Below, piece after piece: positions 1,820-44,619 of a stretch of 64,000 bases of DNA. The DNA is from Nanobdellota archaeon (GTDB lineage Archaea; Nanobdellota; Nanobdellia; Woesearchaeales; JACPBV01): assembly GCA_018813685.1 (NCBI GenBank), contig JAHJAV010000018.1:9576-73575 (forward strand). The letters run 5' to 3'. A program made the translations under genes and the position numbers. Under the pieces are notes generated by a model. The model worked only from the letters and a program-made list of their open reading frames with translations, ran no database searches and was not told where the DNA came from. Position 1 is the first letter of the stretch; every line of letters starts with the position of its first letter.

Positions 1820-3226
1820 ATGGATGAAAACAAAGTAGAATCGATGGATTACCATTCTGGAAAGAAATATGAAAAAAATCCAGTAATGAATAAGCCCGGC
1901 AAAACAGCTGTTCTTGTTACAAAGGGCTGCGAAACACAGGGGGAATTAAGCTTAGCATACACCCCATTTGTTGGAAAAATTGTAGAAGATATACATAGAA
2001 ATCCAGAACAACTGCCTAAATTAACTTCTTACAGCAACAAAGGGGCTGTTATAAGCGATGGAACTGCTATTCTTGGCTTTGGTGATCTAGGGCCGAAAGC
2101 AGCAACACCAGTAATGGAAGGCAAATCAGTCTTGTTTAAGGTTTTTGGAGATGTTGACATGGATTCTATTGTCATAAATGAAAAAGATCCAAAGAAGATC
2201 ATAGAATTCGTAATGAAAATGGAACCTAACTACGCCGGCATAAACCTAGAAGATATCTCAGCCCCAAGATGTTTTGAAATAGAAGAAGAATTACAGAAAA
2301 GGTATAAAGGGTTTATCTTCCATGATGACCAGCATGGTACTGCCACAATTACATTAGGCGGATTGTTAAATGCCTTAGAGCTAGTTAACCTAAAAAAAGA
2401 AGATGCTAAAGTAGTTATTTGCGGCGCAGGAGCTGCTGCTATAGCCTCAGCAAAACTATACAAAAAAGACGGAATAAAAAAAATAATAATGCTTGACAGA
2501 AATGGGGCAATCTTTAAAGGAAGAAACTTTCCAACAAACAAATACAAAGAGCAATTTGCAATAGGCTTAGAAGAATATGGGCTAAATCCAGATAAAGATG
2601 GAAAGATAACCTTAAAAGAAGCTATAAAAGAAGCAAATGTTTTCTTAGGCTTATCAGCAGCTAACTTACTAACGGGAGAAATGGTAGAAAGCATGGCAAA
2701 AGATCCAATAATAATTGCAATGGCCAATCCAGTTCCTGAAATTCTTCCTGATGCTGCTTATGAGCATGGTGCTAAGATTGTAGCAACCGGGAGGAGTGAT
2801 TTTCCTAACCAAATAAATAATGTTTTGGGGTTTCCAGGCATCTTTCGCGGAGCCTTAGATGCTTTGATTTCTAAGACGACTGATGATATCAAGCTGGCGG
2901 CAGCTTATGCCTTAAAGGATCTGGCGCATAAGCCTGTTCCTGAAGAAGTTAAGGATAAATATCCTAAGGATAAGGCAAATGGTGTTTTTGAAGGAGAAGA
3001 CCCAGTAAAGCCAGAATACATTGTTCCTTTGGCATTGGATCCAAGAGTTGCTGTTGAGGTTGCTGCTGCTGTTTACAAGACAGCGTTTGAAAAAGGGATT
3101 GCAACAGCAAAACTTCCAGAAGGATTTAATTCTGCTGAAGAATATATTCCTGCTTACAAGAAGGAAGTTATGGAGAGAATAAAGGTGCAGGATAAGCTTA
3201 GGGAAGCTGTTAGAAATAGTTTTTAG
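1820..3226 (+). CDS. NAD(P)-dependent malic enzyme
   Basis: FHDDQHGTATITLGGLLNALELV and ICGAGAAAIA Rossmann motifs. SD-like aggggggat upstream. Confidence 0.85.
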   Translation: MDENKVESMDYHSGKKYEKNPVMNKPGKTAVLVTKGCETQGELSLAYTPFVGKIVEDIHRNPEQLPKLTSYSNKGAVISDGTAILGFGDLGPKAATPVMEGKSVLFKVFGDVDMDSIVINEKDPKKIIEFVMKMEPNYAGINLEDISAPRCFEIEEELQKRYKGFIFHDDQHGTATITLGGLLNALELVNLKKEDAKVVICGAGAAAIASAKLYKKDGIKKIIMLDRNGAIFKGRNFPTNKYKEQFAIGLEEYGLNPDKDGKITLKEAIKEANVFLGLSAANLLTGEMVESMAKDPIIIAMANPVPEILPDAAYEHGAKIVATGRSDFPNQINNVLGFPGIFRGALDALISKTTDDIKLAAAYALKDLAHKPVPEEVKDKYPKDKANGVFEGEDPVKPEYIVPLALDPRVAVEVAAAVYKTAFEKGIATAKLPEGFNSAEEYIPAYKKEVMERIKVQDKLREAVRNSF

Positions 3227-3424
3227 AATATGCATAGCATCTTCAAAATTCTTGACGGAAGCGGCAAAGGAGCTGCGTTCCCGTAGGGAGCACAGAAAAA
3301 GCCTTGCTTTTTCCTAGTTGCGCTCGGCTTTGCCTCGGCAAACCAACCCCTCGCGACGCTCGTCGATAATATTTGATTTATGGAATTTTGACCCTAGGAT
3401 GCTATGCACATACAGTTTTTAGAA
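3217..3424. repeat. GC-rich structured element A with 13-bp terminal inverted repeats and 11-bp flanking direct repeats
   Basis: DR agtttttagaa at 3217-3227 and 3414-3424; the first copy contains the malic enzyme stop codon. IR tatgcatagcatc (3228-3240) pairs with gatgctatgcaca (3398-3410). The GC-rich core has conserved hairpins shared with elements B and C. Confidence 0.55.
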
Positions 3425-3457
3425 AGTTATAAAAACAAGTTCTTAAAGTGTTTAGAT

Positions 3458-19112: not shown

Positions 19113-19772
19113 ATGTTAACAAAAAATGTACTTTTATATGAAGAACCGATAAAGAGAATACTCGGAAAAGTAGAGTTAGAAACCATATATAAAAAAATTG
19201 AGGGAAAACAATTGAAACAGGTTGAGATGAACTATCTTTCAAGATCTATCCGCCCTAAATTGATTGCTGCAAGAATGATCTCACAAGAAAATATACTTGA
19301 AAGAATCAACAAAAGAACAAGAAGAGAACAATCTTTAATAGAATTTAACCTATCTAATTATGGATATGAGATGATTTCTATAAAACGCAAAAAGCATAAA
19401 AAGTTACCTATTGAAGAACTGATAGTTGAAATAATCATTAAGTATCCTTCGGCACGTTTTATAGAGGCTATACCTTTTTTGATTATAAAAAATAAAATTG
19501 GGGGATTTAAACTTCTTGAATTAGCCACCAGGTACGGAATCAAGAATAAGGTAGGATATTTAATTGAAACTGTATTTATGATAAGGCCAATTCCACAATT
19601 AAAGGGATTGCTAGATTATTTAATAAAGAATAAAGAAAATGAAATGTCCTTTCTTGTTGAGGGAGATGAGGAATTCCTTAGGAAAACTTCCCCTGAGAGG
19701 GTTAGGAAATGGAATCTGCTTGGAAGATTTTTTGATGAGGACTTTAAAAAACTTGCAAAGGTGTACCTATGA
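19113..19772 (+). CDS. hypothetical protein, upstream partner of a nucleotidyltransferase
   Basis: 219-aa ORF overlapping the next gene by 4 bp (ATGA). Confidence 0.4.
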   Translation: MLTKNVLLYEEPIKRILGKVELETIYKKIEGKQLKQVEMNYLSRSIRPKLIAARMISQENILERINKRTRREQSLIEFNLSNYGYEMISIKRKKHKKLPIEELIVEIIIKYPSARFIEAIPFLIIKNKIGGFKLLELATRYGIKNKVGYLIETVFMIRPIPQLKGLLDYLIKNKENEMSFLVEGDEEFLRKTSPERVRKWNLLGRFFDEDFKKLAKVYL

Positions 19773-20266
19773 TAACCAAAGATGACCTTATAGCCTGGCT
19801 TAAATGTGTGGATAAAAAGCTTAAAAGAAAAATGACAATTATAGCAGTGGGGGGCACTGCAATGACTTTGATAGGGCTAAAATCTTCTACAAGGGATGTT
19901 GATTTTTGTCTCCACTCAGATGACAAAAACGAATTCAAGAAGGCAATTGATAACAAGTTTATAGTAGATTTATTTGTAGACGGCTATATTTTTTCAGAGC
20001 AATTACCCCCTGATTATCTAGAAAAATCTACCAAACTAATCGAGATGGAGCATATTGAATTAAGGGCATTGGACAAGGCAGATATAATAATAACCAAGGC
20101 AGCCAGGCTAAATGCTCGGGATGAAGAAGATATCAAGGCCCTAGCCAAATATGTAAACAAAGAAGAGCTTATCAAAAGATTTAATGATGTATTAGAAACA
20201 TATGCTGGAAACGAAGAAGATTTTAAATATCATTTTTCATTAATTGTCAAGCGGTTTTTTAATTAA
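19769..20266 (+). CDS. minimal nucleotidyltransferase (Pol-beta superfamily)
   Basis: VGGTAMTLIGLKSSTRDVDF matches the hG[GS]x9-13Dh[DE]h nucleotidyltransferase motif. Confidence 0.5.
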   Translation: MITKDDLIAWLKCVDKKLKRKMTIIAVGGTAMTLIGLKSSTRDVDFCLHSDDKNEFKKAIDNKFIVDLFVDGYIFSEQLPPDYLEKSTKLIEMEHIELRALDKADIIITKAARLNARDEEDIKALAKYVNKEELIKRFNDVLETYAGNEEDFKYHFSLIVKRFFN

Positions 20267-20631: not shown

Positions 20632-20970
20632 ATGATTGATACAATGGAACAAACACTATTTGTAAAGTTCTTAGGAGATTCGCCTAAGATAAGAGTTTTG
20701 GACGTGCTTATAACAGGAAGAGAGCTAGATTACAGCATATCTGATATAGCCCAGCAGGCAGGAATAGGGAGGGCTACTTTCTACAGGATGATGGATGAGC
20801 TGTTAAAGAATAAGGTAATTATGCTTACGAGGAAATTTGGGAATATACAGCTTTACAAGCTAAACATAGAGAATGAATATGTAAAGGCACTTGTAAAGAT
20901 GTATGACAATATTGCAAAGGCAGCTTCTGAGAAAGAGATTAAACGGCAGAAAATGGTTTTGACGGTTTAA
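20632..20970 (+). CDS. winged-helix DNA-binding protein (paralog of 47364-47705)
   Basis: Shares GRELDYSISDIA..AGIGR.T..R....L....VI...R..GN..LY.LN.EN..VK with the second copy. Confidence 0.5.
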   Translation: MIDTMEQTLFVKFLGDSPKIRVLDVLITGRELDYSISDIAQQAGIGRATFYRMMDELLKNKVIMLTRKFGNIQLYKLNIENEYVKALVKMYDNIAKAASEKEIKRQKMVLTV

Positions 20971-20979
20971 ACATAGAAA

Positions 20980-21333
20980 TTATTTTTCTTCCTGTTCCAG
21001 TTCTGATACGATTTTCTTCAGCTTTGGCTTTAAGCTAGGGATTTCGGTTTTCATAGCTGACCAGACAAGGTTGTAGTCTATGCCAAAGTATGCATGAATC
21101 AATCTGTCCCTCATTCCAGCCATTGATTTCCATTGTATTTCTTTGTAATTATCCTTTATTTTAGAGGGTATATGCTTTGCGGCTTCTCCGATTATCTCAA
21201 ATTTTCTGATAACTGCACTGGATGTCTTTTCATCTGCTTTGAGCTCTTCAAGAGCCATACTGCCTACAAACTCTTCAATTGATTCCATGGCAGCGATAAT
21301 ATCCTTAATGAAAAGGTTATAATCTCTTTTCAT
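20980..21333 (-). CDS. hepT: HEPN-domain toxin HepT (DUF86)
   Basis: RDRLIHAYFGIDYNLVW contains the Rx4HxY HEPN motif. Confidence 0.75.
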   Translation of the reverse strand: MKRDYNLFIKDIIAAMESIEEFVGSMALEELKADEKTSSAVIRKFEIIGEAAKHIPSKIKDNYKEIQWKSMAGMRDRLIHAYFGIDYNLVWSAMKTEIPSLKPKLKKIVSELEQEEK

Positions 21334-21632
21334 ACCTTAACCACCTCTTTAAGGATATTATTTTTCAATTCAGGCCTTATGCCCCCTTCAGAAACAACAT
21401 CTACCTTAATCTTCAGCTTTTCTTCAAGATAATTTCCAAGCCCGACAAAATCAAATAGAGTTGCTTTTGGATTGAATTTTACGAGAATGTCCACATCGCT
21501 TGACTTTTTCTGCTGCCCCCTTGCATAAGAGCCGAATATGCCAAGTTCCCTGACTTTATACTTTTTTTTCAGTTCGCCTTTGCTTGAAGCAAGAAGCGCC
21601 TGGATCTGCTTTAATCTTTTCATTTTATCCAT
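21330..21632 (-). CDS. mntA: minimal nucleotidyltransferase antitoxin MntA
   Basis: GIFGSYARGQQKKSSDVDILV (GSx9-13DxD). 4-bp overlap with hepT. Confidence 0.8.
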   Translation of the reverse strand: MDKMKRLKQIQALLASSKGELKKKYKVRELGIFGSYARGQQKKSSDVDILVKFNPKATLFDFVGLGNYLEEKLKIKVDVVSEGGIRPELKNNILKEVVKV

Positions 21633-21685
21633 ATAATGCGCTGAAAGGATTAGCCTTATTTAATCTTTTTGTTTCTTAATGCCCT

Positions 21686-21707
21686 AGAATTCTTTCGAAC
21701 TTTAATG
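21686..21707. repeat. 22-bp direct repeat, copy 1 (partial duplicate of the 3' end of gene 22509-22805)
   Basis: agaattctttcGaactttaatg. On the minus strand it reads ...TLKFERILGH stop, mirroring the LKFERILEH stop end of the intact gene. Confidence 0.6.
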
Positions 21708-21773
21708 TTACATAATCGATATTTTCTGGTTTGCAGCTGAACATTTATATATAAGCCAGCCCCATAGGTATTT

Positions 21774-22130
21774 ATGAACATATTTTTGGTTAGAAGGGTA
21801 AGAAAGTTTGTAAAGCAAAACAGAATACAGACTACTAAAGATTTTAGAAAGGATTTTTACAATCATAAATTTGATGAAAAAGATATTAAAGAGACATTAA
21901 TAAAAGGGGTTCATCTTAAAAATAGTGAATTATACCCTAATCCTGAAAGGTATGTATCAAAATTTTATGCTATAAACCAAATTTTTATGAGGCATATCCT
22001 GATTGGATATGATATCTATAAAGACCATATAACCCTGATACATACAAGCCCAGCAGGCAATTGGGAGATAAACCAATACAAAAAAGAGAGACGATTACTA
22101 AAACGGGGATTTATAGGACTTTTCCTTTAA
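21774..22130 (+). CDS. hypothetical protein inside the DR-bounded cassette (possible toxin-like)
   Basis: 118-aa ORF convergent with, and overlapping by 20 bp, the zinc-ribbon gene. Confidence 0.35.
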   Translation: MNIFLVRRVRKFVKQNRIQTTKDFRKDFYNHKFDEKDIKETLIKGVHLKNSELYPNPERYVSKFYAINQIFMRHILIGYDIYKDHITLIHTSPAGNWEINQYKKERRLLKRGFIGLFL

Positions 22131-22440
22131 AGAATTCTATTTCATGGGTTGGAGAAATAAAACAACCTTTGATCTTTGCCCATAAGGAAGGATGCAATTC
22201 CTTTCTAACCCTTTCTGCTTCTTTTAAAGATGAAAATGTTTCTCCGCATTTTTTACATTCTAGGACTTCAATAGGAATACTTTTTCCCCCAGACATAACT
22301 ATATCTTTGGTCTCTACTAAATTCCCTTTGCAGAAATCACAAACTCTCTTTTTTTTCAAGTTGATGCACCTCTTGATAGATTTACCTAGATTGAAACTAT
22401 TTAAATCTTTCTTTATATCGGTTCTTTTTGTATTTGACAT
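22111..22440 (-). CDS. YgiT/MqsA-type zinc-ribbon protein (antitoxin-like, no HTH)
   Basis: CDFCKGNLVETKDIVMSGGKSIPIEVLECKKCGETFSSLKEAE matches the YgiT-type zinc-finger pattern C-x2-C ... C-x2-CGE. Confidence 0.5.
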   Translation of the reverse strand: MSNTKRTDIKKDLNSFNLGKSIKRCINLKKKRVCDFCKGNLVETKDIVMSGGKSIPIEVLECKKCGETFSSLKEAERVRKELHPSLWAKIKGCFISPTHEIEFFKGKVL

Positions 22441-22508
22441 TTTATGTTAGTATTTTAGGGTAGTGATTGTTATATAAAAATCTTTCTAAATTTATGTTTC
22501 TCTAATGG

Positions 22509-22805
22509 TCAATGCTCAAGAATTCTTTCAAACTTTAATGCGCGTTCTCTTAAACATTCTTTTTTGGCTGTTGCTGCAAATGACTTATAGACTTCGCCTT
22601 TGAACTTGCAGGCTAAAGGGTTGTTGCAGAGGTTGATTATACCTGTGATGCCTGTCATGTACTGGCATGTTTCTTTTGTGTTTAGGGAATTGATGTAATG
22701 GTCGGAATCTTCCTGTTTCTCGTGAAGAAGATTTTGTATTTTTAACTCTCTAAAAGAATGCTGCCTATCTTTAATCCTTTCAAGACTAGCCTGTAAATCC
22801 GGCAT
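22509..22805 (-). CDS. hypothetical protein (98 aa)
   Basis: ORF whose last 9 codons plus stop are duplicated about 840 bp away. Confidence 0.4.
   Translation of the reverse strand: MPDLQASLERIKDRQHSFRELKIQNLLHEKQEDSDHYINSLNTKETCQYMTGITGIINLCNNPLACKFKGEVYKSFAATAKKECLRERALKFERILEH
22524..22545. repeat. 22-bp direct repeat, copy 2 (encodes the C-terminus of gene 22509-22805)
   Basis: agaattctttcAaactttaatg, 21/22 identical to copy 1. Confidence 0.6.
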
Positions 22806-22951
22806 CTATACACCCCCTATTCTTTGCAATATAGCAAGTAATTGGTATATTTAAAGGTTGCGGAATTGGGGTGGGAAAAGAGTAAAAATTGGGTTTGGTA
22901 GGTGTTAAATTCAATAAAATTTCCATTTCTGAATGATAAAAACAGCGGAGT

Positions 22952-23797
22952 TCAGTGCTTCGCATATTGAGAATTCCTAACAACTGTAGCTGCCAAATGG
23001 AAAGATTGATCTTGTGTCGCAAACCAATATACTTTTCGAGACAGGGGATTTTCCTCATGAAAGTAACTCAAAGCTTGAGCTGATTCATCACATCTAACCA
23101 CGAGTTCATCTCCAAATAGCCTATTCCTTGGTATTACCACATCATGAGCGCCAGGTGTGATTATATTCGGTTTCACATTTCTTCGAAAATATTCTGATGC
23201 TCCATTTGGATCCACCATTCTATGTATGTTTTCATACTCTATTCTATTCATTGTTCTTACAGCACCATCTATAAAAAAATCCTTTGTTCCATGGGCTGGA
23301 AACGCATTAGATGGGGGAGTAGCATTCATATCAACTCGAAAACCAACTGCCGATTCAGGGGGTATATCTCCAATATGAAACAGAGTATAAGCAGGAATTG
23401 TTTTTTCAGGATCATAATGCTCAAGTGGAAAATCTCTCTCATCTAATCCATTAAGAAGCACCACATGGATTGGATTTTCATCCAAAGCAAATACGCCCCT
23501 TCGTGTAAGAAAATCAACCTGACCACCAAGAAATTTAATCCTTCCATTATACAATTGATCCAATATTAGGGTGAGATCTCCTTGATGGTGAAATGATTGG
23601 AGAGTAGCTTGAGCTTGCCCTTCACTCACCAGAAAAAGTTCCTGACTTACACCAGCCGGATTTCGGGCAATCACATCTAATACTTGATGTAATCTTCTTT
23701 CTTGAATATGATACATAAGCGATTCTGTAACCTGTGGAATTGCAATCCTAACAGATGGATCTGCATTTCGTTCACTACCAGTAAAGATTACAGCCAT
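22952..23797 (-). CDS. hypothetical protein with atypical (higher GC, low Lys/Ile) composition
   Basis: 281-aa ORF whose codon usage is visibly different from neighbours. No confident family assignment; likely horizontally acquired. Confidence 0.45.
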   Translation of the reverse strand: MAVIFTGSERNADPSVRIAIPQVTESLMYHIQERRLHQVLDVIARNPAGVSQELFLVSEGQAQATLQSFHHQGDLTLILDQLYNGRIKFLGGQVDFLTRRGVFALDENPIHVVLLNGLDERDFPLEHYDPEKTIPAYTLFHIGDIPPESAVGFRVDMNATPPSNAFPAHGTKDFFIDGAVRTMNRIEYENIHRMVDPNGASEYFRRNVKPNIITPGAHDVVIPRNRLFGDELVVRCDESAQALSYFHEENPLSRKVYWFATQDQSFHLAATVVRNSQYAKH

Positions 23798-23965
23798 ATT
23801 CCTAATAAGATTGAAACAGACTAATAAATCTTTTGGTTTTTTCCGTCACTCCTATCTATCAAAGGTTGGGCCTTACCAAAATATTGCTGAAAACTCCCCC
23901 TGACTACTTGTTATTGATGTGACACTTGGCTTAATATAAAGAACTGAACTCCCCCTAAAAATATA

Positions 23966-23982
23966 GTCTGCCTTCGGCAGAA
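23966..23982 (-). terminator. UUCG-tetraloop hairpin downstream of leuS
   Basis: ctgcc-ttcg-ggcag stem-loop followed on the minus strand by a T-rich tract. Confidence 0.4.
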
Positions 23983-24038
23983 TTGATTGGAAATGGAAAT
24001 TTTACTTTTCGGAACGAAATTTAACAAAAATCCTTAAC

Positions 24039-28199: not shown

Positions 28200-28223
28200 T
28201 TTGTTTAGATTATGAATATTTTA

Positions 28224-28309
28224 TGCGAGGGACGGGATTCGAACCCGCGCAGGCACTAAGCCATACGGCCCTCGACCGTATCCGTTTGACCAGGCTCCGG
28301 CACCCTCGC
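28224..28309 (-). tRNA. tRNA-Leu (anticodon GAG), type II with long variable arm
   Basis: Minus-strand read: gcgaggg acceptor; anticodon stem tacgg/ccgta with loop tcGAGgg; T-arm gcggg-ttcgaat-cccgt; 86 nt. Confidence 0.85.
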
Positions 28310-28351
28310 AATGTTGAGACGCCATAAATTGGCTTTGCCAATTTAATGTCA

Positions 28352-29161: not shown

Positions 29162-29553
29162 ACTCTTCTACCTCTTTTACCGCCTTTTTTCCTGCATCCA
29201 TCGTGAGGCATAGGCGTTACATCCTCTATGATACCTATCCTTAATCCCATTCTGGATAAAGCCCTTACTGCTGCCTGGGCCCCTGGACCTGGATTATTAG
29301 GGCCATTATGGCCGCCAGGTGCTTTTATTTTAACATGAATGCCATTTATGCCTTTGTCCATAGCAGTCTCTGCTGCTTTTTTTGCAGCTATCATTGCTGC
29401 TGTAGGTGAAGATTCCATCCTGTCTGATTTGACAACCTGGCCACCCGAGGACAAAGCTAATGTTTCTGTGCCTGAAATATCAGTAATATGAATTATGGTA
29501 TTATTATAGCTAGAGTAGATATGCGCAATGCCCCATTTTATTTCCTGCTTCAT
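29158..29553 (-). CDS. rps11: 30S ribosomal protein S11 (uS11)
   Basis: Conserved S11 core. Confidence 0.9.
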
Positions 29554-30338
29554 TGTTTCTCCCCTTTATCTGAATTCTCTTTTTCTGTTTTCCCTTCTAC
29601 CTTTTCTGCTTTTTGAGGCTCTTCTTTCTTCTCTTTTTTAGGAGTAGGCTCTTCCTTTTTCTCTATTTTTTCTTCTTCTGCTTTTTGAGGCTCTTCTTTC
29701 TTCTCTTTAGCTTCTTCTTTTTGCTTTTTTGACTTTTTTTCTTTTTTGAATTTAGCGTGATCTGGCTTTTTTTCTTTCTTTTCTTCTTTTTTGTCTTCAG
29801 CAGATTCTTTAACTGCAGGCTCCTGATGAACTAATCTTTCAGGATGATCCTGGCTGGATAAAGCTGAAGTCGAAGAAAATGATATTAATGCTTCTTCCTG
29901 TTTTGAAACTAAATAAGAAGGGACTGTAAGAGGCTTATCTTTGATCATGATATGACTATGAGTTATGAACTGCCTTGCCTGCCTTATTGACTTTGCAAGC
30001 TTATTTTTGTAAACTACTGTCTGCAATCTTCTGGCCAAAATCTCTTTTAAAGTAAGTGTAAGAACGTCTTCTAATTTTGCTGATTCACTAATCAAACCTA
30101 ATGAAGATAATTTTCTTAAAAGCTGAACCTGCTCTTTCTCTGCTTGAGGAGTATCTAATGTGATCAGTTTCTTTGCCTGCCTGGCGTATTTTCTCAATAA
30201 GGATGAAACCCTCCATATTTCTGTCTTGTTCTTTAGGCCAAACTCTGTTAAAAGCTCTTTTTCCTCTTCAATCCTTTCTTTCTGCCAAGGATGTGTTGGA
30301 CCGCTGTATGTTTTTCTTTTTAGTTTTGGATGTCCCAT
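29550..30338 (-). CDS. rps4: 30S ribosomal protein S4 (uS4) with an ~85-aa Lys/Glu-rich C-terminal extension
   Basis: [24 protein letters not shown]-terminus. The tail is [21 protein letters not shown]... Confidence 0.85.
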
Positions 30339-30404
30339 TTTTTATACCTTAAAAAGCTAGGGTAGAAAAATGCGTTAGCATTTTTTGTGTCCCATTTTTT
30401 ACTT

Positions 30405-30887
30405 TTATACCCTGCCGGCTTTTGAGATTGGCCTAGTTTTTACACCTAAGCTTACCTTGCCTTTGTTTTTTCTGAAGTTGCTCTTTGTCCTCTGGCCCCT
30501 GACAGGCTGGCCAAGTATGTGCCTTACCCCTTTGTAAGACTTCATCTTTTTCATCATCTTGATATCATTATCCTGCATGTAGTTCAAATCGACTGTGATA
30601 ATATGCTTATCTTCTCCTGTTTCAGGGTCTTTTCTCCTGTTAAGAATCCAAGAAGGCGCGCCTGATTTGATAGGATCTTTTAGAACATTATTTATCCTGC
30701 TTAGTTCGTCTTCACCTAAGTCTCCTGTCCTCTTTTTTCGGTCTATCTTTGCTAAATGACAGATCAGATTGGTGAACATGAAGTTAACTCCCTTTATCTG
30801 CCTTAAGGTAATGCCTATAGGCCTGGTTCCATTAAGATCTGTGTTTGCTACTCTGACAATGTGTCGAAAATCTTTGTGTTCTTCCAT
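30405..30887 (-). CDS. rps13: 30S ribosomal protein S13 (uS13)
   Basis: FRHIVRVANTDLNGTRPIGITLRQIKGV. Confidence 0.9.
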   Translation of the reverse strand: MEEHKDFRHIVRVANTDLNGTRPIGITLRQIKGVNFMFTNLICHLAKIDRKKRTGDLGEDELSRINNVLKDPIKSGAPSWILNRRKDPETGEDKHIITVDLNYMQDNDIKMMKKMKSYKGVRHILGQPVRGQRTKSNFRKNKGKVSLGVKTRPISKAGRV

Positions 30888-31191: not shown

Positions 31192-31383
31192 ATGGGAAGA
31201 ATAAAACTACAGCTCATAAAGAGAACAACCAAGAGAATTGTAAGGGAGCACGGCTCTGAAATAAAGGAAGATTTTAACGAGAACAAGAAAATAGTAGAGA
31301 AATATACTGATGTTTCTAATAAGAAGCTAAGAAATGCGATTTCTGGTTATATTACTAAGCTAGCAAAAATAAAGGAAGAGTAA
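31192..31383 (+). CDS. rps17e: 30S ribosomal protein S17e
   Basis: MGRIKLQLIKRTTKRIV...KKLRNAISGYITKL. Start at the internal ATG of the longer ORF. Confidence 0.8.
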   Translation: MGRIKLQLIKRTTKRIVREHGSEIKEDFNENKKIVEKYTDVSNKKLRNAISGYITKLAKIKEE

Positions 31384-31529
31384 AGGTTATTCGGCTAAGG
31401 GCCCAACAGAAAAAACTCCTGTTTTTTCCTATCTCCGCTCGGCTAACGCCTCTGGAGATGCCCGATAGACTCCTGCTTCCAGTTTGTGCTGTTTTGAGAA
31501 ACAGCACGAACGATAAAGGAAGAGTAAAG
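31369..31529. repeat. GC-rich structured element C (127 bp) flanked by a perfect 17-bp direct repeat duplicating the rps17e 3' end
   Basis: DR ataaaggaagagtaaag at 31369-31385 (contains the rps17e stop TAA) and at 31513-31529. The core shares about 50 nt with element A, with compensatory changes in two hairpins, and carries an extra 9-bp stem gtgctgttt/aaacagcac. Confidence 0.6.
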
Positions 31530-31561
31530 TTTATAAGGATTTTAGAATTCTATTGTTTTAT

Positions 31562-33677: not shown

Positions 33678-34005
33678 TAGGCAGGGCTGGAATAAGCCAC
33701 CTTTTGTCAGATGATTTCCATCTGTCTTAGCATTTAACTAAGCGTTTTAAAAACTTGCACCGGTCAGGTCTCGCCGTTTCATCCATTCCTCTTAGAGCGT
33801 CTGTCGGTTAACTCAGTTACGTTGCCGTAACCTTCTCGACTTTCATCCTCCTAAAAGGGGGTCTCGTTTCTGTGCGGTTGCCGCACATTGCTGCACCTTC
33901 TTTATGAAGTGACCATAATAGCCAGAGGCTATTGGTGGGTGGACTTTCCTCAGTTCGTACTTACATTGCTGTAAGGAACCGTTAGCTAAGTACCTTCCCT
34001 GCCTA
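33678..34005 (-). ncRNA. rnpB: RNase P RNA
   Basis: Minus strand has GAGGAAAGUCCACC (CR-I / P4 5' strand, plus 33941-33951) and ACAAAAGGUGGCUUA (CR-V / P4 3' strand, plus 33691-33704); they pair with the conserved bulged U. P1 terminal helix aggcaggg/ccctgcct. GC-rich island about 328 nt. Confidence 0.7.
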
Positions 34006-36675: not shown

Positions 36676-39600
36676 TTATACATCATCTATAAGATCCTGC
36701 GCTGTTTTGTCTTCTATTTTCTGTTCTTGTTCTGTTTTGTCTTCAATCTGCTTTTCTTCTTTGGCTTCTATTTTCTGTTCTTGTTCTGTTTTGTCTTCAA
36801 TCTGCTTTTCTTCTTTGTATTCTATTTCCTGCTCTTTTTCTGAATTGTCTTCTATCTCTTTCTCTGGCTCTGAATTGTCTTCAATCTCTTTTGGCTCTTC
36901 ATAGGAGATTTCATTAGCTGGTCCTGATTCTTCTTTAGTAGCCTCTTTTCCATTAACTTCCTTTGGCTCTTCTCCTAAGATTTTTGCTGCTGCAACTACT
37001 TTATCCCCTGATTCAAGCTTCATCAATGTCATGCCCTGTGTTGCTCTGCCTATTATTGAAATTCCTTTTGCAGGAGTCCTTATGGTAATTCCGTTCTTGC
37101 TTATGAACATGACTTCGTCTTCTTCGGTTATTGACTTAACTGAAACTACATTACCGTTTCTTTCTGAGCAGATTATGTTCTTGACACCTACCCCCCCTCT
37201 GCGAGTAAGCCTATATTCAGAAACCGATGTTCTTTTTCCAAAGCCGTTTTCAGTTATGGTCAATAATGCCCTTGTATCATCTGCAACTACCATGCCTATA
37301 ACATAATCATTATCTCTTAATGTAGCCCCTCTTACGCCTTTTGCAGACCTCCCTGTTGACCTTACATCTGTTTCTTTGAATCTTACTGCTGAGCCGTTTT
37401 TTGTAGCTATGATTATCTCTTTTGTACAATCTGTCTTTACAACTCTTATCAATTCATCATTATCTTCAAGAGTGATTGCAATAATGCCTCCTTTTCTAGG
37501 GTTAGAGTATGCTGAAAGCTCTGTCTTTTTTACTGTTCCATTTTTAGTGGCCATTATCAAAAATTCATTTTCTTTAAATTCTGATATTGGAGTAAATGCA
37601 GAGATTTTTTCATCCTGGCTTAACTGAAGTAAGTTAACTACTGATTTTCCTAAAGCCTGTCTTGAGCCTTCTGGTATGTTATAAACTTTTAACCAATGAA
37701 CACGTCCCTTATTTGTAAAGAACAATATGTAAGAATGGGTGTCTGCAATAAAGATGTCTTCTACAAAGTCCTGCTCTTTTGTTCCGGCAGCAATTATTCC
37801 TTTTCCGCCTCTTCTCTGCTGCTTATAGGTGCTTAATGGCTGTCTTTTTACATAGCCTGAATGAGTTATTGTGATGACTGTTTTTTCTCTTTTGATCAAA
37901 TCTTCCATCTCAAATGAATTTAATTCACCACCTGTAATCTCTGTCCTTCTTTCATCTCCGTATTGTTCTTTTAATTCAATGAGCTCTTTTTTGATTATGT
38001 CAAGGATCTTTTTTTCAGAAGCCAATATTGAGGTAAGCTCACCTATTAATTTTATTAAGTCAGAATGCTCTGTCTTTATCTTTTCCTGCTCAAGTGCTGC
38101 AAGCCTCTGCAGTTTCATATCCAAGATAGCCAATGACTGCTTTTCTGTTATGCTTAAGCTTGTCTGTAATACCTGCCTTGCCTGCTCAACAGATCTGCTT
38201 TCTTTGATAAGTTTTATAGTTGTATCTATGTCTTTAAGTGCAATCAATAATCCCTCTAATATATGTGCCCTGTCTTTTGCTTTGTTTAGGTCAAATTCTG
38301 TTCTTTTTCTTACAACTTCTTTCCTATGCTCGACAAAAAAATAGATAAGCTGTTTTATGCCTAATGTCTTTGGCTCATTGTTGACTAAGGCAACTGCCAT
38401 TATTCCAAATGTTTCCTGTAATCTTGTATGTTTGTATAATTGATTTATGACTATGTTTGAGTTTGAGTCTTTTTTTAATTCTATAACAATGCTCATTCCC
38501 GTTCTATCTGATTCATCCCTTATATCACTTATACCCCTTATCTTATCATCATTTACTAATCCCGCTATCTGTTTGATAAGTTCTGATTTATTTACCATGT
38601 AAGGGATCTCTGTGATTATGATGCGGTTTTTTTCTGGCTCAATCTCTGCTCTGCCCCTTACAATTACCTTTCCTCTGCCTGTTTTGTAAGCATGAACTAT
38701 TCCTTCTCTTCCGCAGATTATTCCGCCTGTTGGGAAGTCAGGACCTTTTACATGGTTCATTATTTCATCGACTTCTAAATCAGGATTTTCTATCAAAGCA
38801 ATTGTTCCATTGACCACTTCAGTCATGTTATGGGGCGGTATGTTTGTTGCCATGCCGACTGCGATGCCTGAAGAGCCGTTTATCAGAAGATTAGGAACTT
38901 TTGAAGGAAGAACAACTGGCTCTTCTAATGAGCCATCGAAGTTTGGCATAAATTGAACTGTGTTTTTGTCTATGTCCTGCAAAAGTTCTTCTGAGAGTTT
39001 TTTTAGACGAGCTTCTGTATATCGCATAGCTGCTGGACTATCGCCATCTACCGAGTTATGAACAAAGATTCCGGCAGCTAAAGCAAAATTGTGTGTGCCC
39101 TTGATTGTCAAATCATAAACATCTTCTAATTTTGGAAGAAGTTCTATTCTTAGAATTTTATGGTTGTAGGCTTTTGCTTGTTCAACCATGTCTGAGAAAT
39201 TATCAAAGTATTGTAATGCTGTGTTTATTTTTGGAAAGCAATTATTGGTTCTTTCTTTTCCATAGATTTCAGGTGTTATTTCTTCATATTTGTGAGTGAT
39301 TGAATTGACAAAACACAATATCTTGCTTTTCATTACTTTTTCTTTGTAAGAAGGATCCTGCCATTTTTTCTTCAGGGAAACGGCTGCTTTTTCTGCCAGT
39401 TCATTCATTAAGTTGGAGTTTTCTTTTAGTCTCTGCTTATTATTTTCTTTTATTGCTTTAATGATTTTTTCACGGAATTCAAGATCTTGCCATTGTGAAA
39501 CCGCTTTTTTGCTGTGAGCTTCTTTTATTGATGGATCTTCCCATAACTTTTTTGCCATCTTACTGAAATGGTTTTTAGGGAATTTGGACCTATATCCACT

Positions 39601-40968
39601 ATCTTTCCAGAGTTTTTTTGAATTTTCACTTCTCTCTTTCTTGTATTTTTTGTTTTCCCACCTTTCTTTTGATTTCTTGGAGATAAGGCCTCTGCGCCCT
39701 GGTCTTGCCCAGATTTCTTTAGATTCTTCTGAAGTGAATTTCCTTAATGAAGGATCATTTTTCTCCCATCTTTTTTTCATTTCTGCTGATTTTAGTTTGC
39801 TCATCTTTTGATGATATTCTTTATTACCCCATAGCTCTTTCAATCTCCTGCTTTTTTCTTCTCTTAATTCTGGATGTTTTTTTGAGAATTCAATATTGAT
39901 TTCACTCAATCTTTTACTCGTATGTTCCCTATAATCCTTATTCTTCCAATTCTTTTTGTTTCTTTCAGAAAGTTTTTTAGAAGCTCTTTCTTTGTTATCT
40001 TTATTAGACCAGAATCTTTTTCTTCCTTCTGCTATTTTTCTGCGATATTCTGGATCTTTGTGTAATTCTGAAGCATGTCCTGCATGCAATGACCAATGAT
40101 CTTTCCATTTTATTCTTTTTATGTTGTCTGGGTTGTTGTTTAATTTGTTAAAATCTATATGGTGTCTTATTCTTCCTGCATTCTTTGCATATATTTCATT
40201 TTTAATATTCCAATTATCTGCTAGTTCATGTATTGGTGCCCATTTGTTTGTGTTTGATTGATGGAGCATTGGATAACCAACAAGTGCTGGCTTTATGTTA
40301 TCTTTTTTAGTAGATGGCCTAATGTTAAGGGGCATCAAGGAATCTTCTGGTTTTAGGTATTGTGCTTGTTTATACTCGCCATTTCTTAGCATGAACCTAT
40401 GGTCTAAAGTGCACTTTATTCCTTCATTATTGTCTAAAACAACCTTTAGGATTTTTTGGCTTTTCTTTGTGAGTCTAGGGTTTTTTATTTCAGCTATTTC
40501 TATGCTTCCCTCTTTATTAATAGTGTAAGTATAGTTCTTTTTGCCTTTTTTATGCTCTTTTATTAACTCTTCAAAGCTTAGGTTTCTACCATCTGTTAAG
40601 GCTATTTTAGTATCTTTTGTGAAACAACCAAAATTACCCTGACCATCAATTAGAGTATATCTTAAAGAGAATGGCTGGACCATCCTAGCTAATGAATCAT
40701 AAACAGCAACATCGCCGTGAGGGTGATATTTTCCTAAAACTTCTCCTACAATCCTGGCGCTTTTTTTGAATGGCTTGTTATGATACATACCCATATCATT
40801 CATTGCGAAAAGAATCCTTCTGTGAACTGGCTTTAAGCCGTCTCTTACATCTGGCAAGGCTCTTCCAACTATGACAGACATAGCATAATCTACATAAGAC
40901 TGCTTCATCTCTTCTTCTATCTCTCTGGGCAGTATCTGCTCTCCTTTTGATTCGATTTTTTCAGTCAT
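36676..40968 (-). CDS. gyrA: DNA gyrase subunit A interrupted by a 524-aa intein, with an acidic EK-repeat C-terminal tail
   Basis: N-terminal GyrA motifs up to QGNFG. The extein resumes with SVDGDSPAAMRYTEARL and the GyrA beta-pinwheel follows. Confidence 0.9.
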   Translation of the reverse strand: MTEKIESKGEQILPREIEEEMKQSYVDYAMSVIVGRALPDVRDGLKPVHRRILFAMNDMGMYHNKPFKKSARIVGEVLGKYHPHGDVAVYDSLARMVQPFSLRYTLIDGQGNFGCFTKDTKIALTDGRNLSFEELIKEHKKGKKNYTYTINKEGSIEIAEIKNPRLTKKSQKILKVVLDNNEGIKCTLDHRFMLRNGEYKQAQYLKPEDSLMPLNIRPSTKKDNIKPALVGYPMLHQSNTNKWAPIHELADNWNIKNEIYAKNAGRIRHHIDFNKLNNNPDNIKRIKWKDHWSLHAGHASELHKDPEYRRKIAEGRKRFWSNKDNKERASKKLSERNKKNWKNKDYREHTSKRLSEINIEFSKKHPELREEKSRRLKELWGNKEYHQKMSKLKSAEMKKRWEKNDPSLRKFTSEESKEIWARPGRRGLISKKSKERWENKKYKKERSENSKKLWKDSGYRSKFPKNHFSKMAKKLWEDPSIKEAHSKKAVSQWQDLEFREKIIKAIKENNKQRLKENSNLMNELAEKAAVSLKKKWQDPSYKEKVMKSKILCFVNSITHKYEEITPEIYGKERTNNCFPKINTALQYFDNFSDMVEQAKAYNHKILRIELLPKLEDVYDLTIKGTHNFALAAGIFVHNSVDGDSPAAMRYTEARLKKLSEELLQDIDKNTVQFMPNFDGSLEEPVVLPSKVPNLLINGSSGIAVGMATNIPPHNMTEVVNGTIALIENPDLEVDEIMNHVKGPDFPTGGIICGREGIVHAYKTGRGKVIVRGRAEIEPEKNRIIITEIPYMVNKSELIKQIAGLVNDDKIRGISDIRDESDRTGMSIVIELKKDSNSNIVINQLYKHTRLQETFGIMAVALVNNEPKTLGIKQLIYFFVEHRKEVVRKRTEFDLNKAKDRAHILEGLLIALKDIDTTIKLIKESRSVEQARQVLQTSLSITEKQSLAILDMKLQRLAALEQEKIKTEHSDLIKLIGELTSILASEKKILDIIKKELIELKEQYGDERRTEITGGELNSFEMEDLIKREKTVITITHSGYVKRQPLSTYKQQRRGGKGIIAAGTKEQDFVEDIFIADTHSYILFFTNKGRVHWLKVYNIPEGSRQALGKSVVNLLQLSQDEKISAFTPISEFKENEFLIMATKNGTVKKTELSAYSNPRKGGIIAITLEDNDELIRVVKTDCTKEIIIATKNGSAVRFKETDVRSTGRSAKGVRGATLRDNDYVIGMVVADDTRALLTITENGFGKRTSVSEYRLTRRGGVGVKNIICSERNGNVVSVKSITEEDEVMFISKNGITIRTPAKGISIIGRATQGMTLMKLESGDKVVAAAKILGEEPKEVNGKEATKEESGPANEISYEEPKEIEDNSEPEKEIEDNSEKEQEIEYKEEKQIEDKTEQEQKIEAKEEKQIEDKTEQEQKIEDKTAQDLIDDV
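36712..36830. repeat. tandem ~57-bp nucleotide repeat (x2) encoding the EK-rich GyrA tail
   Basis: ctattttctgttcttgttctgttttgtcttcaatctgcttttcttctttg occurs twice in tandem. Confidence 0.6.
39055..40626 (-). mobile_element. intein in gyrA with HNH homing endonuclease and NUMOD3-like Lys-rich repeats
   Basis: Starts with Cys after GNFG and ends VHN before Ser (CAT AAC TCG at 39060-39052). Internal RIRHHIDFNKLNNNPDNIKRIKWKDHWSLH is an HNH-like motif. There are about 8 tandem copies of a ~22-aa K/S/W repeat. Confidence 0.8.
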
Positions 40969-42535: not shown

Positions 42536-43828
42536 TCATTTTTTCTTTTTTTGCTGCTTTTTGGCTTCTTCCTCTTCGGCAGCTGCTTCTAGTAGGTCCT
42601 TTGGTTCTTCTTCGCTGGATTCTGATTCTTTAGAATGTTCTTGGTTTTCTTCAGCTGGTTCTTGTTCTGCTTTTTTAGTTTCTGATTCTTCCTGTTCTGC
42701 TTCTTTTTCCTGTTCTTCAGGTTCTGTTTTTTCTTCTTTTTGTTCTTCTTTTACTTCTGTTTCGTCTGCCTCTTCCTGGGGATGGAGCATCTTTTCAAGC
42801 TCTTCATCAACTTCGCCATCTTCTTTTGATTCTGGTTTTGATGATCCTTCTTGCTTTTTGTCTGATTCTTCTTTGGTTTCTGATTCGGCTGGGGTTTCTT
42901 CCTGTGCAGCTGATTCGTCTGATGTACCTTCTGCATCTTCCTGAGGCTGTTCTTCTGATTCTGATTGAGATTCTTCTTGCTCTGATTCTCCCTGAGTTTC
43001 TTCTGATTCATCTTTTGATTCTTCTTCAGGAACATCAAAAATCCCTGATTTTTGAGTGTGCTCAGAAACCGCAGTTTCCGACATATCAACAACATCTAAA
43101 TTACCTACTTTTTCTTTAATTGGTTCTACTTCTTTGGATTCCTGCTGCTCTTGTTCTGATTCTGTCTCTTCGTATATCTCTAAGGGTTGTTTGTGTCCTT
43201 TTTGATCTAACAAATCTATTTCTGGATCTTCTTTGCGGCTTTTTTTTCCTGCTTCTTTTGCTTGTTTTTTTATATCTTCTTTTATGTGTTTTATCTCTTC
43301 TTCTTTTTCTTTTATGGCCTTAGATATGCCTTCAAAGCTCTGGAACTTTTCTTTTAGCTTGTCAGGCGGAAGATCAAAATAATCAAAGAATTTTGGAGTT
43401 AGTTTGATAAGATTAGTTCTGCCAAACTTCTGCCTTGAGATATATCCCATATTCTCAAGTTCTCTCAGATGGTCGTATGCTTTGTTTGTCCTTATCTTTA
43501 TCAAATCTGATTGTTTAATAGGATACTTAAAGGCTATTACTGCTAATGTTTCCATCAAGGTCTTGCTAAGCTCTGTTTCTGTTACAATCTGATGAACTAC
43601 GTTTACATGCTCTGACTTTATATTGAGCCTGAATGAGTTGCCTTCATCTATCAGAGTGATTGAGCTATCTCTTTTTTCATAATCCTGCTTGAGTTGGTTA
43701 AGGGTTTCCCTTATCTCTTCTGGAGAGGCCTTTGTAAGAGAAGATAATTCCTCAATAGTCATGCTCCTTGCTGAAGAAAAAAGCAGTGCCTCTAATTTAT
43801 ACCTTAGATTAGACATTAAGTTCATCAC
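42536..43828 (-). CDS. scpB: segregation and condensation protein B (ScpB) fused to a ~230-aa acidic low-complexity tail
   Basis: N-terminal tandem wHTH: KLEALLFSSARSMTIEEL ... QSDLIKIRTNKAYDHLRELENMGYI. C-terminal E/K/S-rich tail ending KKQQKKKK. Confidence 0.7.
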   Translation of the reverse strand: MMNLMSNLRYKLEALLFSSARSMTIEELSSLTKASPEEIRETLNQLKQDYEKRDSSITLIDEGNSFRLNIKSEHVNVVHQIVTETELSKTLMETLAVIAFKYPIKQSDLIKIRTNKAYDHLRELENMGYISRQKFGRTNLIKLTPKFFDYFDLPPDKLKEKFQSFEGISKAIKEKEEEIKHIKEDIKKQAKEAGKKSRKEDPEIDLLDQKGHKQPLEIYEETESEQEQQESKEVEPIKEKVGNLDVVDMSETAVSEHTQKSGIFDVPEEESKDESEETQGESEQEESQSESEEQPQEDAEGTSDESAAQEETPAESETKEESDKKQEGSSKPESKEDGEVDEELEKMLHPQEEADETEVKEEQKEEKTEPEEQEKEAEQEESETKKAEQEPAEENQEHSKESESSEEEPKDLLEAAAEEEEAKKQQKKKK

Positions 43829-43901: not shown

Positions 43902-44477
43902 TTATGCTAAATAATAATAGTCTTCTTCTTTTTTAATCTTTCCTTCGTCAATCAATTTTTTAAGATGCTTTTCCATCTCTTCCTGGTTAATACCTGTGAA
44001 TTTGGATAATTCTTCTGTTGTGTTCTTGTTTATCTTGATAAGAACAGTAATAAGGTTTGAGATAGATGTGTCCATATTTCTTCTTAAGAAGTCTCTTTCT
44101 GCCTTTAGTGTCTTGGCTACTGTGTCAACGCTGTGGAGCTTAGACTGAAGGTCATTGAAGAAATTTGAAAGATCCCTGTTTTTTAGAGTTAATTGTTCTG
44201 GTTTTTCTATATCTATAGAAGAAGGCATAAAGTCAAAGCAGAAGCCTGTAACTGCCGGCAAGCCCTTAAAGACCATCTCCAGCTCAACAAATGTGCTGAA
44301 CATTGTCTTTTCAAGTGGTTGAATTTCTGCATATTTTTCATTCAGGATTGAGATTTCAGGATCTTCTTTTACTTTGTCGACTAACATCTTTATTGTCTTT
44401 TCGACGTGTTCTTTTGGCTTTCCGATTACTTCGAGGATTGCCCTGCATCTTATAGGTTCTTTTTTTTCTTCTGGCAT
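43902..44477 (-). CDS. hypothetical protein with C-terminal wHTH-like region
   Basis: Start set at MPEEKKEP. Sits upstream of scpB but lacks obvious ScpA motifs. Confidence 0.4.
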   Translation of the reverse strand: MPEEKKEPIRCRAILEVIGKPKEHVEKTIKMLVDKVKEDPEISILNEKYAEIQPLEKTMFSTFVELEMVFKGLPAVTGFCFDFMPSSIDIEKPEQLTLKNRDLSNFFNDLQSKLHSVDTVAKTLKAERDFLRRNMDTSISNLITVLIKINKNTTEELSKFTGINQEEMEKHLKKLIDEGKIKKEEDYYYLA

Positions 44478-44619
44478 GTTAATGCTAAAGAATAGTGGAA
44501 AATATAAAAAGGTTTCTATTGAAAGAGAAAGACAAAAGTAAATTATGATTTGTTTGTCTGTCAAAAACCTTAGGGTTTTTGAGCATGCTCAGAAACCTTT
44601 GATTTCTGACATTTCTATA

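Follow-up and report, generated by a model that had tools for sequence, protein, structure and literature searches.

A two-gene, toxin-antitoxin-like cassette at the 3' end of a conserved gene in a Nanoarchaeota genome: an insertion with apparent duplication of the gene terminus

Archaeal integrated mobile elements are known from the 3'-distal region of protein-coding genes (Krupovic et al. 2019, PMC6563490); they measure several kb to tens of kb, have their own integrase (or casposase) and carry their attachment (att) core along. Integron gene cassettes with toxin-antitoxin cargo have been reported in Nanoarchaeota (Ghaly et al. 2022, PMC9668308), the pairing and fusion of DUF4258 with MqsA is documented among type II toxin-antitoxin systems (Gerdes 2025, PMC11980606), and C-terminal displacement, or homology-facilitated illegitimate recombination, has been proposed for effector-immunity loci of the Rhs, contact-dependent inhibition (CDI) and type VI secretion system (T6SS) kinds (Kirchberger et al. 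2017, PMC5361080). Here we describe a two-gene cassette that lies between the gene for a 98-amino-acid (98-aa) protein and a resident mntA-hepT operon in a stretch of 64,000 nucleotides (nt), called the window below, from a Nanobdellota archaeon (GCA_018813685.1, contig JAHJAV010000018.1, positions 9,576 to 73,575). The window is identical to the ENA contig ERZ27247128:k141_1363373 and 99.8% identical to JBDRNL010000072 of GCA_043811255.1, which NCBI labels as a Nanoarchaeota metagenome-assembled genome (MAG).

Known kinds are combined at this locus, a mobile toxin-antitoxin-like module and an insertion at a gene 3' end, and the locus is a variant of both. As in the archaeal integrated elements, direct repeats overlap the 3' end of a gene, the gene stays intact with a replaced or duplicated stop codon, and an empty site can be compared with an occupied one. 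Unlike those elements, the cassette is only 0.78 kb long, encodes no recombinase and is flanked by a repeat that is specific to its target. Set beside the features of integrase-type elements, gene-end repeats with a reconstituted gene are present, while a recombinase gene and a travelling att core are absent from the cassette.

The evidence for insertion comes from an uninterrupted form of the locus, which we found in the Logan contig SRR22216451_142507 (L004 below; related contigs carry such labels throughout), a metagenome contig related to the window at 86-87% nucleotide identity. In L004 the 98-aa gene (protein 86% identical) is followed by a 51-nt spacer and then by mntA, and the cassette is absent. 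BLAST aligns L004 263-633 with window 22862-22491 (86.8% identity) and L004 582-971 with window 21709-21328 (85.9%), and both repeat copies of the window map to the same segment, L004 582-633. On the gene side, and for ~18 nt beyond the stop codon, the homology to L004 lies with copy 2; on the spacer and mntA side it lies with copy 1; and the gene-side homology ends where the homology of the cassette to its copy in contig L022 starts (22493). Because L004 is an empty site to which both window copies map, these alignments show 21710-22490 (~781 bp) as an insertion, with an apparent duplication of a 44-52 bp target that straddles the stop codon. The parsimonious reading is that the insertion took place in the lineage of the window. 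The first-pass annotation had proposed that DNA was inserted at the 3' end of the 98-aa gene and the terminus duplicated, and had advised looking for the uninterrupted locus in relatives; the empty site bears the proposal out. A second copy of the gene end was present in none of the loci of 14 further relatives (0/14), ruling out the idea that the end of the 98-aa gene is a hot spot at which other cassettes sit in relatives. In L003, a 70% relative, an unrelated convergent gene directly follows the 98-aa gene.

The repeat itself stands out from the rest of the window. The 22-bp sequence agaattctttc(g/a)aactttaatg occurs there in two copies only, as had been claimed, at 21686-21707 and at 22519-22540; the first position had been given correctly, and the second (as 22524-22545) 5 nt too high. 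For a 22-mer, 0.02 matches are expected by chance, and two copies were reached in 0/100 shuffles. Without gaps the direct repeat extends to 30 nt (27/30 identity; 21678-21707 versus 22511-22540, spacing 833), which makes it the highest-scoring dispersed direct repeat across the 64-kb window in our own scans and places it first among 628 flank-pair comparisons (score 45, runner-up 38). Read directly, the two copies encode the gene C-terminus in the same frame, in agreement with the first-pass annotation: copy 2 gives ...ALKFERILEH followed by TGA, the terminus of the 98-aa open reading frame (ORF), and copy 1, with the register unchanged, gives ...TLKFERILGH followed by TAA (remnant 21676-21709). 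In a three-way alignment with L004 the duplicated target widens to ~52 nt in copy 2 and ~44 nt in copy 1, with 8 nt deleted from copy 1 just past the stop codon relative to both L004 and copy 2. The two copies differ at 7/43 positions, plus the indel.

We observe that the cassette is also a discrete unit outside the window. It recurs at 70-82% identity in L019 and L020-L026, in at least seven unrelated DPANN contexts, one copy lying downstream of a glyceraldehyde-3-phosphate dehydrogenase (GAPDH) gene. Nucleotide homology of the other copies to the window runs from 21737 or 21770 to 22488 or 22493, and the pairwise shared length is 759-784 nt among L019 and L022-L025, in keeping with the 781-nt insert of the window, and the flanks of these copies are unrelated. 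The guanine-plus-cytosine (GC) content of the cassette is 0.30, against 0.36-0.38 around the insert. As described earlier for the window, an ORF of 118 aa and a zinc-ribbon ORF converge with a 20-bp 3' overlap, an arrangement present in 8/8 loci. Conservation starts and stops just outside a TTTAWATA block upstream of each gene, and the block CTTATATAAAAAYCTTTCT is conserved in six loci, with homology ending at window 22488-22493. We infer that the TTTAWATA blocks are archaeal TATA boxes, which would provide each gene with its own promoter. Among seven copies, third codon positions carry most of the substitutions (by codon position, 367/267/1008 in the 118-aa ORF, 239/221/665 in the zinc-ribbon ORF), which shows both ORFs to be real genes under purifying selection. 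The comparisons also show a cassette that is modular and horizontally mobile among DPANN archaea.

Neither the cassette proteins nor the repeat were found in IMG/VR, among INPHARED phages or among PLSDB plasmids, and PADLOC and PHROGs gave no meaningful match for the cassette proteins or the target gene. Homology of the cassette over its last 27 nt (21710-21736), with a terminal motif ATGTTACA in common with L022, was considered and rejected as not significant, the observed score being attained in 47/500 shuffles.

Table 1. Positions in the window of the cassette, its genes and putative promoter elements, the direct repeats and the adjoining resident genes.
Feature	Position	Strand	Remarks
Inserted two-gene cassette	21710..22490		~781 bp; conserved core ~21737-22490, edge 21710-21736 poorly conserved
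Direct-repeat copy 1	21666..21709		Dead remnant: last ~11 codons of the 98-aa gene + TAA, then original spacer; contiguous with the ancestral mntA promoter side
Direct-repeat copy 2	22491..22542		Functional last ~11 codons + TGA of the 98-aa gene, ~18 nt former spacer
TATA-box-like TTTATATATAA	21744..21754	+	~20-30 nt before the start codon (ATG) of the 118-aa gene; TTTAWATA block conserved in 7 loci
118-aa ORF, candidate toxin	21774..22130	+	DPANN-only unannotated family; invariant D27, G45, Y65, H90; motif IHTSPxGxxE
109-aa zinc-ribbon ORF, candidate antitoxin	22111..22440	-	CDFC and CKKCGE 18 residues apart, followed by helix SSLKEAERVRKEL; convergent with the 118-aa ORF, 20-bp 3' overlap
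TATA-box-like TTTTTATATAA	22470..22480	-	~30 nt before the start codon (ATG) of the zinc-ribbon gene; marks the conserved right-hand boundary of the cassette
Target gene, 98-aa protein	22509..22805	-	Four invariant cysteines; conserved in Nanoarchaeota/Woesearchaeota, usually adjoins leuS
Resident mntA-hepT toxin-antitoxin operon	20980..21632	-	mntA 21330-21632, hepT 20980-21333; immediately downstream of the remnant

With respect to the cargo, the pair resembles MqsRA and the DUF4258-MqsA type II pairs in that two small genes are always found together, in toxin-antitoxin-rich islands, and are mobile. The 109-aa protein resembles the N-terminal domain of MqsA, with a CxxC...CxxCGE zinc ribbon followed by a helix, and this motif, in the form CDFC...CxKCGE, is invariant across the family. 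Against YgiT_finger (TIGR03831) the protein scores 16.9 bits (curated cut-off 20.2, E 0.0055) and against MqsA (TIGR03830) 14.5 bits (cut-off 61.8, E 0.023). Across the zinc-ribbon family 13/13 members match TIGR03830 and 12/13 match TIGR03831, with best E values of 0.0017-0.0018 and all of them below the curated cut-offs, so that the YgiT/MqsA-type ribbon proposed for this toxin-like cargo holds as a resemblance that recurs across relatives and falls short of the formal thresholds. No helix-turn-helix (HTH) was found in the 109-aa protein with Pfam or NCBIfam, its model consisting only of a beta ribbon and two short helices. The pair differs from YgiT/MqsA type II pairs in its sub-threshold matches, in having no HTH, in being convergent with separate promoters, and in that the 118-aa family is restricted to DPANN archaea.

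The 118-aa protein has 11 homologues in a search of 5.8 billion sequences and 17 representatives (E <= 1e-3) among 1.84 billion, and the named homologues are all hypothetical proteins from Nanoarchaeota or Woesearchaeota. It has no Pfam match. The first-pass annotation had pointed to a DUF4258-like toxin next to a YgiT finger as a known pairing; the pairing is indeed a documented one (PMC11980606), yet DUF4258 was matched in only 1/16 relatives of the 118-aa protein, with an E value of 0.16. Weak structural neighbors, obtained with low-confidence models, are toxins of the RelE/BrnT/YafQ type, and on these models the protein is a candidate RNase-type toxin with a RelE/BrnT-like fold. In L027, L029 and L030 the 118-aa gene has been lost or replaced and a truncated zinc-ribbon gene persists; a toxin-antitoxin pair tolerates loss in this order, which would be expected with the 118-aa protein as the toxin. 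Cassette neighbors include MntA/HepT, PIN, Fic and DUF6036 genes, a context that gives indirect support. The pair probably acts as a toxin-antitoxin module of the addiction or defence type.

The reading of the locus that we favor, and regard as reasonably probable, is that a mobile DPANN two-gene cassette with a candidate toxin and antitoxin was inserted by non-dedicated repair or recombination, with a target duplication of ~50 bp, and was kept by selection. The cassette would have landed in the very short stretch between the stop codon of the 98-aa gene and the mntA-hepT promoter, where two junctions formed in a staggered manner, ~50 bp apart, would have led to duplication of 44-52 bp of target, made up of the last 32-35 nt of the 98-aa gene, its stop codon and ~18 nt of spacer. 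The upstream copy would preserve an intact 98-aa gene, and the downstream copy would be a decaying remnant in its original context before mntA. Joining may have occurred by end-joining or template switching at microhomology, or by homology-facilitated illegitimate recombination anchored in the 98-aa gene. Because the spacers of this genome are ~50 nt, an insertion would survive only if the upstream gene end and the downstream promoter both stay intact; a duplication that spans the stop codon keeps both the end of the 98-aa gene and the mntA promoter intact, and selection would have retained only the event that rebuilt the gene end.

What is seen at the ends of the cassette and in its other contexts bears on this reading. 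No integrase or transposase domain was found in the cassette or in the ten neighboring ORFs between 19113 and 23797, the only ones scanned, there are no terminal inverted repeats at the cassette termini, and no sequence like the tail of the 98-aa gene occurs near the cassette copies in L019-L030. Flanking repeats are significant in 2/6 testable contexts, the window (score 45, shuffle maximum 28) and L020 (88, shuffle maximum 31); one considered in L019 did not rise above the background of its locus. The duplicated target thus measures 44-52 nt in the window and ~100 nt in L020, and a duplication is absent in L023 and L025. The ~100-nt repeat of L020 encodes the C-terminal tail of a Cas4-like nuclease and is unrelated to the repeat of the window. 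Since there is no shared att core, the L020 repeat is unrelated and the other copies are without the 98-aa gene tail, these comparisons show the repeat to be derived from the target and not from the element, and its length not to be fixed. A target-derived repeat of variable length argues against both an att-based integrase and a transposase with a fixed stagger, and integration would then have proceeded with neither a cassette-encoded nor a sequence-specific recombinase. Insertion sequences and miniature inverted-repeat transposable elements (MITEs) likewise differ from the cassette, which has no terminal inverted repeats and no target duplication of fixed length. Retroposition of a transcript was ruled out as the origin of the cassette, given that both promoters are included and that the genes are convergent.

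Several observations weigh against the favored reading. The empty site is represented by a single contig, a product of short-read assembly that is 1.7 kb long and has 14% divergence. From one independent context to another the cassette ends fall within a few nt of each other, which could mean that they are recognized by an enzyme acting in trans. ATGTT is present at both junctions, and TG/TT (the slash marking the boundary) bounds the duplicated segment in the empty site, so that a specific nick or crossover motif is possible; by a rough estimate that allows ±3 nt, the coincidence has a chance of 0.05-0.07. The differences between the copies (7/43) fit an old duplication or two alleles of different origin. 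As to the cargo, the toxin-antitoxin assignment is built on sub-threshold matches and low-confidence models, Foldseek with the 118-aa model gave no credible match, and the convergent gene order is atypical of type II systems, with no co-directional bicistronic operon in 8 loci.

The alternative that survives best, though we consider it unlikely, takes up the possibility of two alleles. In this scenario the end of a 98-aa gene, a short spacer and the cassette would have come in together from a related genome, with the homology anchor in the 98-aa gene and the far end joined illegitimately just upstream of the resident stop codon, displacing the resident tail downstream. The divergence between copies 1 and 2 (7/43 plus the indel) equals that between the window and L004, as this origin would have it. 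In the three-way comparison, 2 sites are specific to copy 1, 3 are specific to copy 2 and 2 are common to both copies against L004, a pattern that in our alignment fits an in-situ duplication and a donor-allele origin of copy 2 equally well. A donor allele would also require two events, including a prior cassette insertion 18 nt past the stop codon in the donor lineage, and no donor-like locus was found among 17 relatives. The locus is like C-terminal displacement arrays in that a module follows a conserved gene, with the old 3' tail orphaned downstream (remnant 21676-21709) and with repeated events known to build arrays; it is unlike them in that the anchor gene is no polymorphic toxin, the tail is not the variable part, and a single event is seen at this locus.

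Arrays do occur in related contigs, at L020 1-2165, L027 540-4873 and L029 1200-4340, and contain Fic, either the 118-aa/zinc-ribbon module or a pair of DUF5678 and aspartic-protease-like genes, and DUF2779. Repeats of ~90-104 nt lie between the cassettes of an array and encode the C-terminal tail (KAVEVLEG..CEWCKYC) of a Cas4-like PD-(D/E)XK nuclease, and in L027 the N-terminal nuclease fragments (MPYKFSPSSLSLL.ECPRCFW) are triplicated as well. The flanks of L020 and L029 are 99.85% identical, with a clean cassette swap between them.

These arrays lend support to the proposal of an incoming donor allele. The cassettes of L020, L027 and L029 are separated by remnants of the nuclease tail of ~38 to 106 codons, in which some blocks are conserved and the differences are enriched at third positions, as in alleles that kept their function while they diverged; the recent cassette swap has its breakpoint exactly where one tail ends; and this logic has already been put forward for T6SS and Rhs arrays (PMC5361080). 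Tail displacement by homology-facilitated illegitimate recombination matches the three arrays well. The cassette and its arrays may also be compared with integron cassettes, to which they are similar in being sub-kilobase, non-autonomous, often with toxin-antitoxin cargo, and present in many contexts, with arrays that have ~100-nt repeats in L020 and L027. They differ from integron cassettes in that there is no attC-like hairpin, the repeats are pieces of host coding sequence and the two-gene cassette has two promoters. Folding of both repeat copies and of the L020 repeats as single-stranded DNA revealed no hairpin (z-scores -1.45 to +1.51), and IntI was not found in the ten ORFs mentioned above.

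A mini integrative element mobilized in trans by a site-specific integrase (tyrosine or SSV-type) is, in our view, quite unlikely. Here the cassette, as a circle, would have an attP resembling the 98-aa gene at its 3' end; a crossover at the chromosomal attB would yield attL and attR, seen as the two repeats, and would replace the last codons and stop of the gene. Integrated elements in archaea commonly have the 3'-distal part of a protein gene as their target, with att repeats of 8-69 bp and a stop codon supplied by the element (PMC6563490), and the repeat length of 30-52 nt falls within this range; attP and attB can differ, as the two copies do, and the cassette ends are reproducible between contexts. 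Set against these likenesses, no integrase was found in the cassette or the scanned neighbors, the other cassette copies have no sequence like the 98-aa gene tail and mostly no flanking repeat, the second repeat-flanked copy (L020) uses an unrelated ~100-nt repeat, and no viral contig with the cassette or the repeat was found.

It is extremely improbable that the repeat arose by chance, or that the 98-aa gene was duplicated locally in tandem and one of its copies then decayed: there are indeed two copies of the last ten codons in the same orientation, 833 nt apart, but alignment of the copies with their flanks, as the first-pass annotation had recommended, shows homology that ends after ~50 nt, tblastn detected no further 98-aa-like sequence, the intervening DNA is an independent mobile unit found elsewhere without the 98-aa gene, tandem duplication is refuted by the empty site and the occurrence of the cassette in unrelated loci, and a repeat with a chance expectation of 0.02 that ranks at the top of 628 comparisons is poorly explained by coincidence.

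The first-pass annotation had further held that GC-rich elements in the window have the same insertion signature, the duplication of a gene end with its stop codon, and that this points to a common integration mechanism; it had also recommended looking for further duplications of this kind. A systematic test of 71 gene ends gave two outliers, both with a score of 19 (the cassette locus and rpS17e), with mid-gene controls at 13 or less. At rpS17e (31192-31383), a 22-nt direct repeat (21/22; 31369-31390 and 31513-31534) holds the last four codons and TAA, and flanks a 122-nt GC-rich element (31391-31512) that has a strong RNA fold (z -4.6) and immediately precedes the tRNA-His promoter. This is probably the element that had been named GC-rich element C. 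A related GC-rich element at 3216-3426, which has a ~60-nt core in common with 31391-31512, including a covarying A-rich/U-rich hairpin, sits between the stop codon of a malic-enzyme gene (3224-3226) and a gene for a metallo-beta-lactamase (MBL)-fold protein. Its boundaries are marked by an 11-nt inverted repeat, TGCATAGCATC at 3232-3242 with GATGCTATGCA at 3399-3409, and by a ~13-nt direct repeat AYAGTTTTTAGAA that includes the stop codon; the right arm of the inverted repeat contains the ATG (3404) of the downstream gene. Rfam assigned no family to the GC-rich elements. The shared stop-duplication signature is real for at least one further element, namely at rpS17e, and is weaker (~13 nt) at the malic-enzyme gene. 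A common mechanism does not follow from it: because repeat lengths (~13, 22 and 44-52 nt) and element ends differ, a shared mechanism is not shown. Shared end sequences or a recombinase were not found, and the other cassette copies are mostly without flanking repeats.

A broader hypothesis would join these observations into a DPANN class of recombinase-less (or trans-mobilized) mini-cassettes and small structured-RNA elements, with duplicative insertion at 3' ends that rebuilds the last codons and stop, duplications from 13 to more than 100 bp, iteration into integron-like arrays (L020, L027 and L029), and ATGTT, or TG/TT, as the nick or crossover site of an unknown enzyme. We regard this hypothesis as doubtful.

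The window has other GC-rich or repetitive stretches. The most GC-rich one is explained by the archaeal RNase P RNA at 33684-33999 on the minus strand (Rfam RF00373, 124.5 bits), and a further GC-rich stretch by tRNA-Leu at 28223-28310. At 36676-36897, the 3' end of a 1430-aa ORF (36676-40968, minus strand) is made up of degenerate tandem repeats (periods 24, 30 and 54 nt), which encode an acidic repetitive C-terminus. A 22-nt direct repeat (20/22) with an internal palindrome, TTTTTGAGYRTGCTCAGAAACC, is found at 43049-43070 and 44576-44597, 1527 nt apart, flanking the ORF 43902-44564 (minus strand). At 30331-30401, in the spacer between the genes 30405-30887 and 29550-30338 (both minus strand), the 14-nt TAAAAAATGGGACA occurs twice, 57 nt apart, and the second copy includes the start codon of the downstream gene (score 14, control maximum 13); this pair could be a small gene-start duplication.

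The resident genes around the cassette show variation of their own. The 98-aa family has 37 homologues with a conserved C-terminus (...RFEKMLEH) and no family or structure match in Pfam or PDB; a "MazG" label given in one source is unsupported. Pfam identifies mntA (NTP_transf_2, 1.1e-16) and hepT (HepT-like, 3.3e-29) immediately downstream of the remnant. When L004 960-985 is compared with window 20970-21340, L004 retains mntA and has lost hepT, with only ATGAAAGACCATTAA (MKDH and a stop) left between mntA and a convergent HTH gene; the antitoxin-type nucleotidyltransferase is thus orphaned. In window 22806-24038, the interval from leuS to the 98-aa gene, a 281-aa ORF without a family match (22952-23797, minus strand) is absent from L003, where the spacer is ~30 nt, and L004 has a different gene in its place; this region is a second variable insertion at the locus, at which no flanking repeat was found. 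A further pair, consisting of a 219-290-aa protein of unknown kind followed by an overlapping DUF6036 nucleotidyltransferase gene, is present both at window 19113-20266 and at L027 6028-7559, and this recurrent pair of the two islands may be another mobile toxin-antitoxin-like module.

The movement of small toxin-antitoxin modules that have no recombinase of their own is poorly understood. This locus provides a clean pair of empty and filled sites in an uncultivated Nanoarchaeota lineage, together with a defined unit of ~780 bp that is found in many contexts, and it defines two unannotated, DPANN-specific protein families whose genes form an unusually organized pair, convergent and overlapping. 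A single insertion appears to have duplicated ~50 bp of its target such that the upstream gene and the downstream promoter both survived. A second stop-spanning duplication in the same window and, in related contigs, arrays of cassettes with gene tails between them leave two possibilities: selection for duplicative insertions in very compact genomes, or the existence of a dedicated mechanism.

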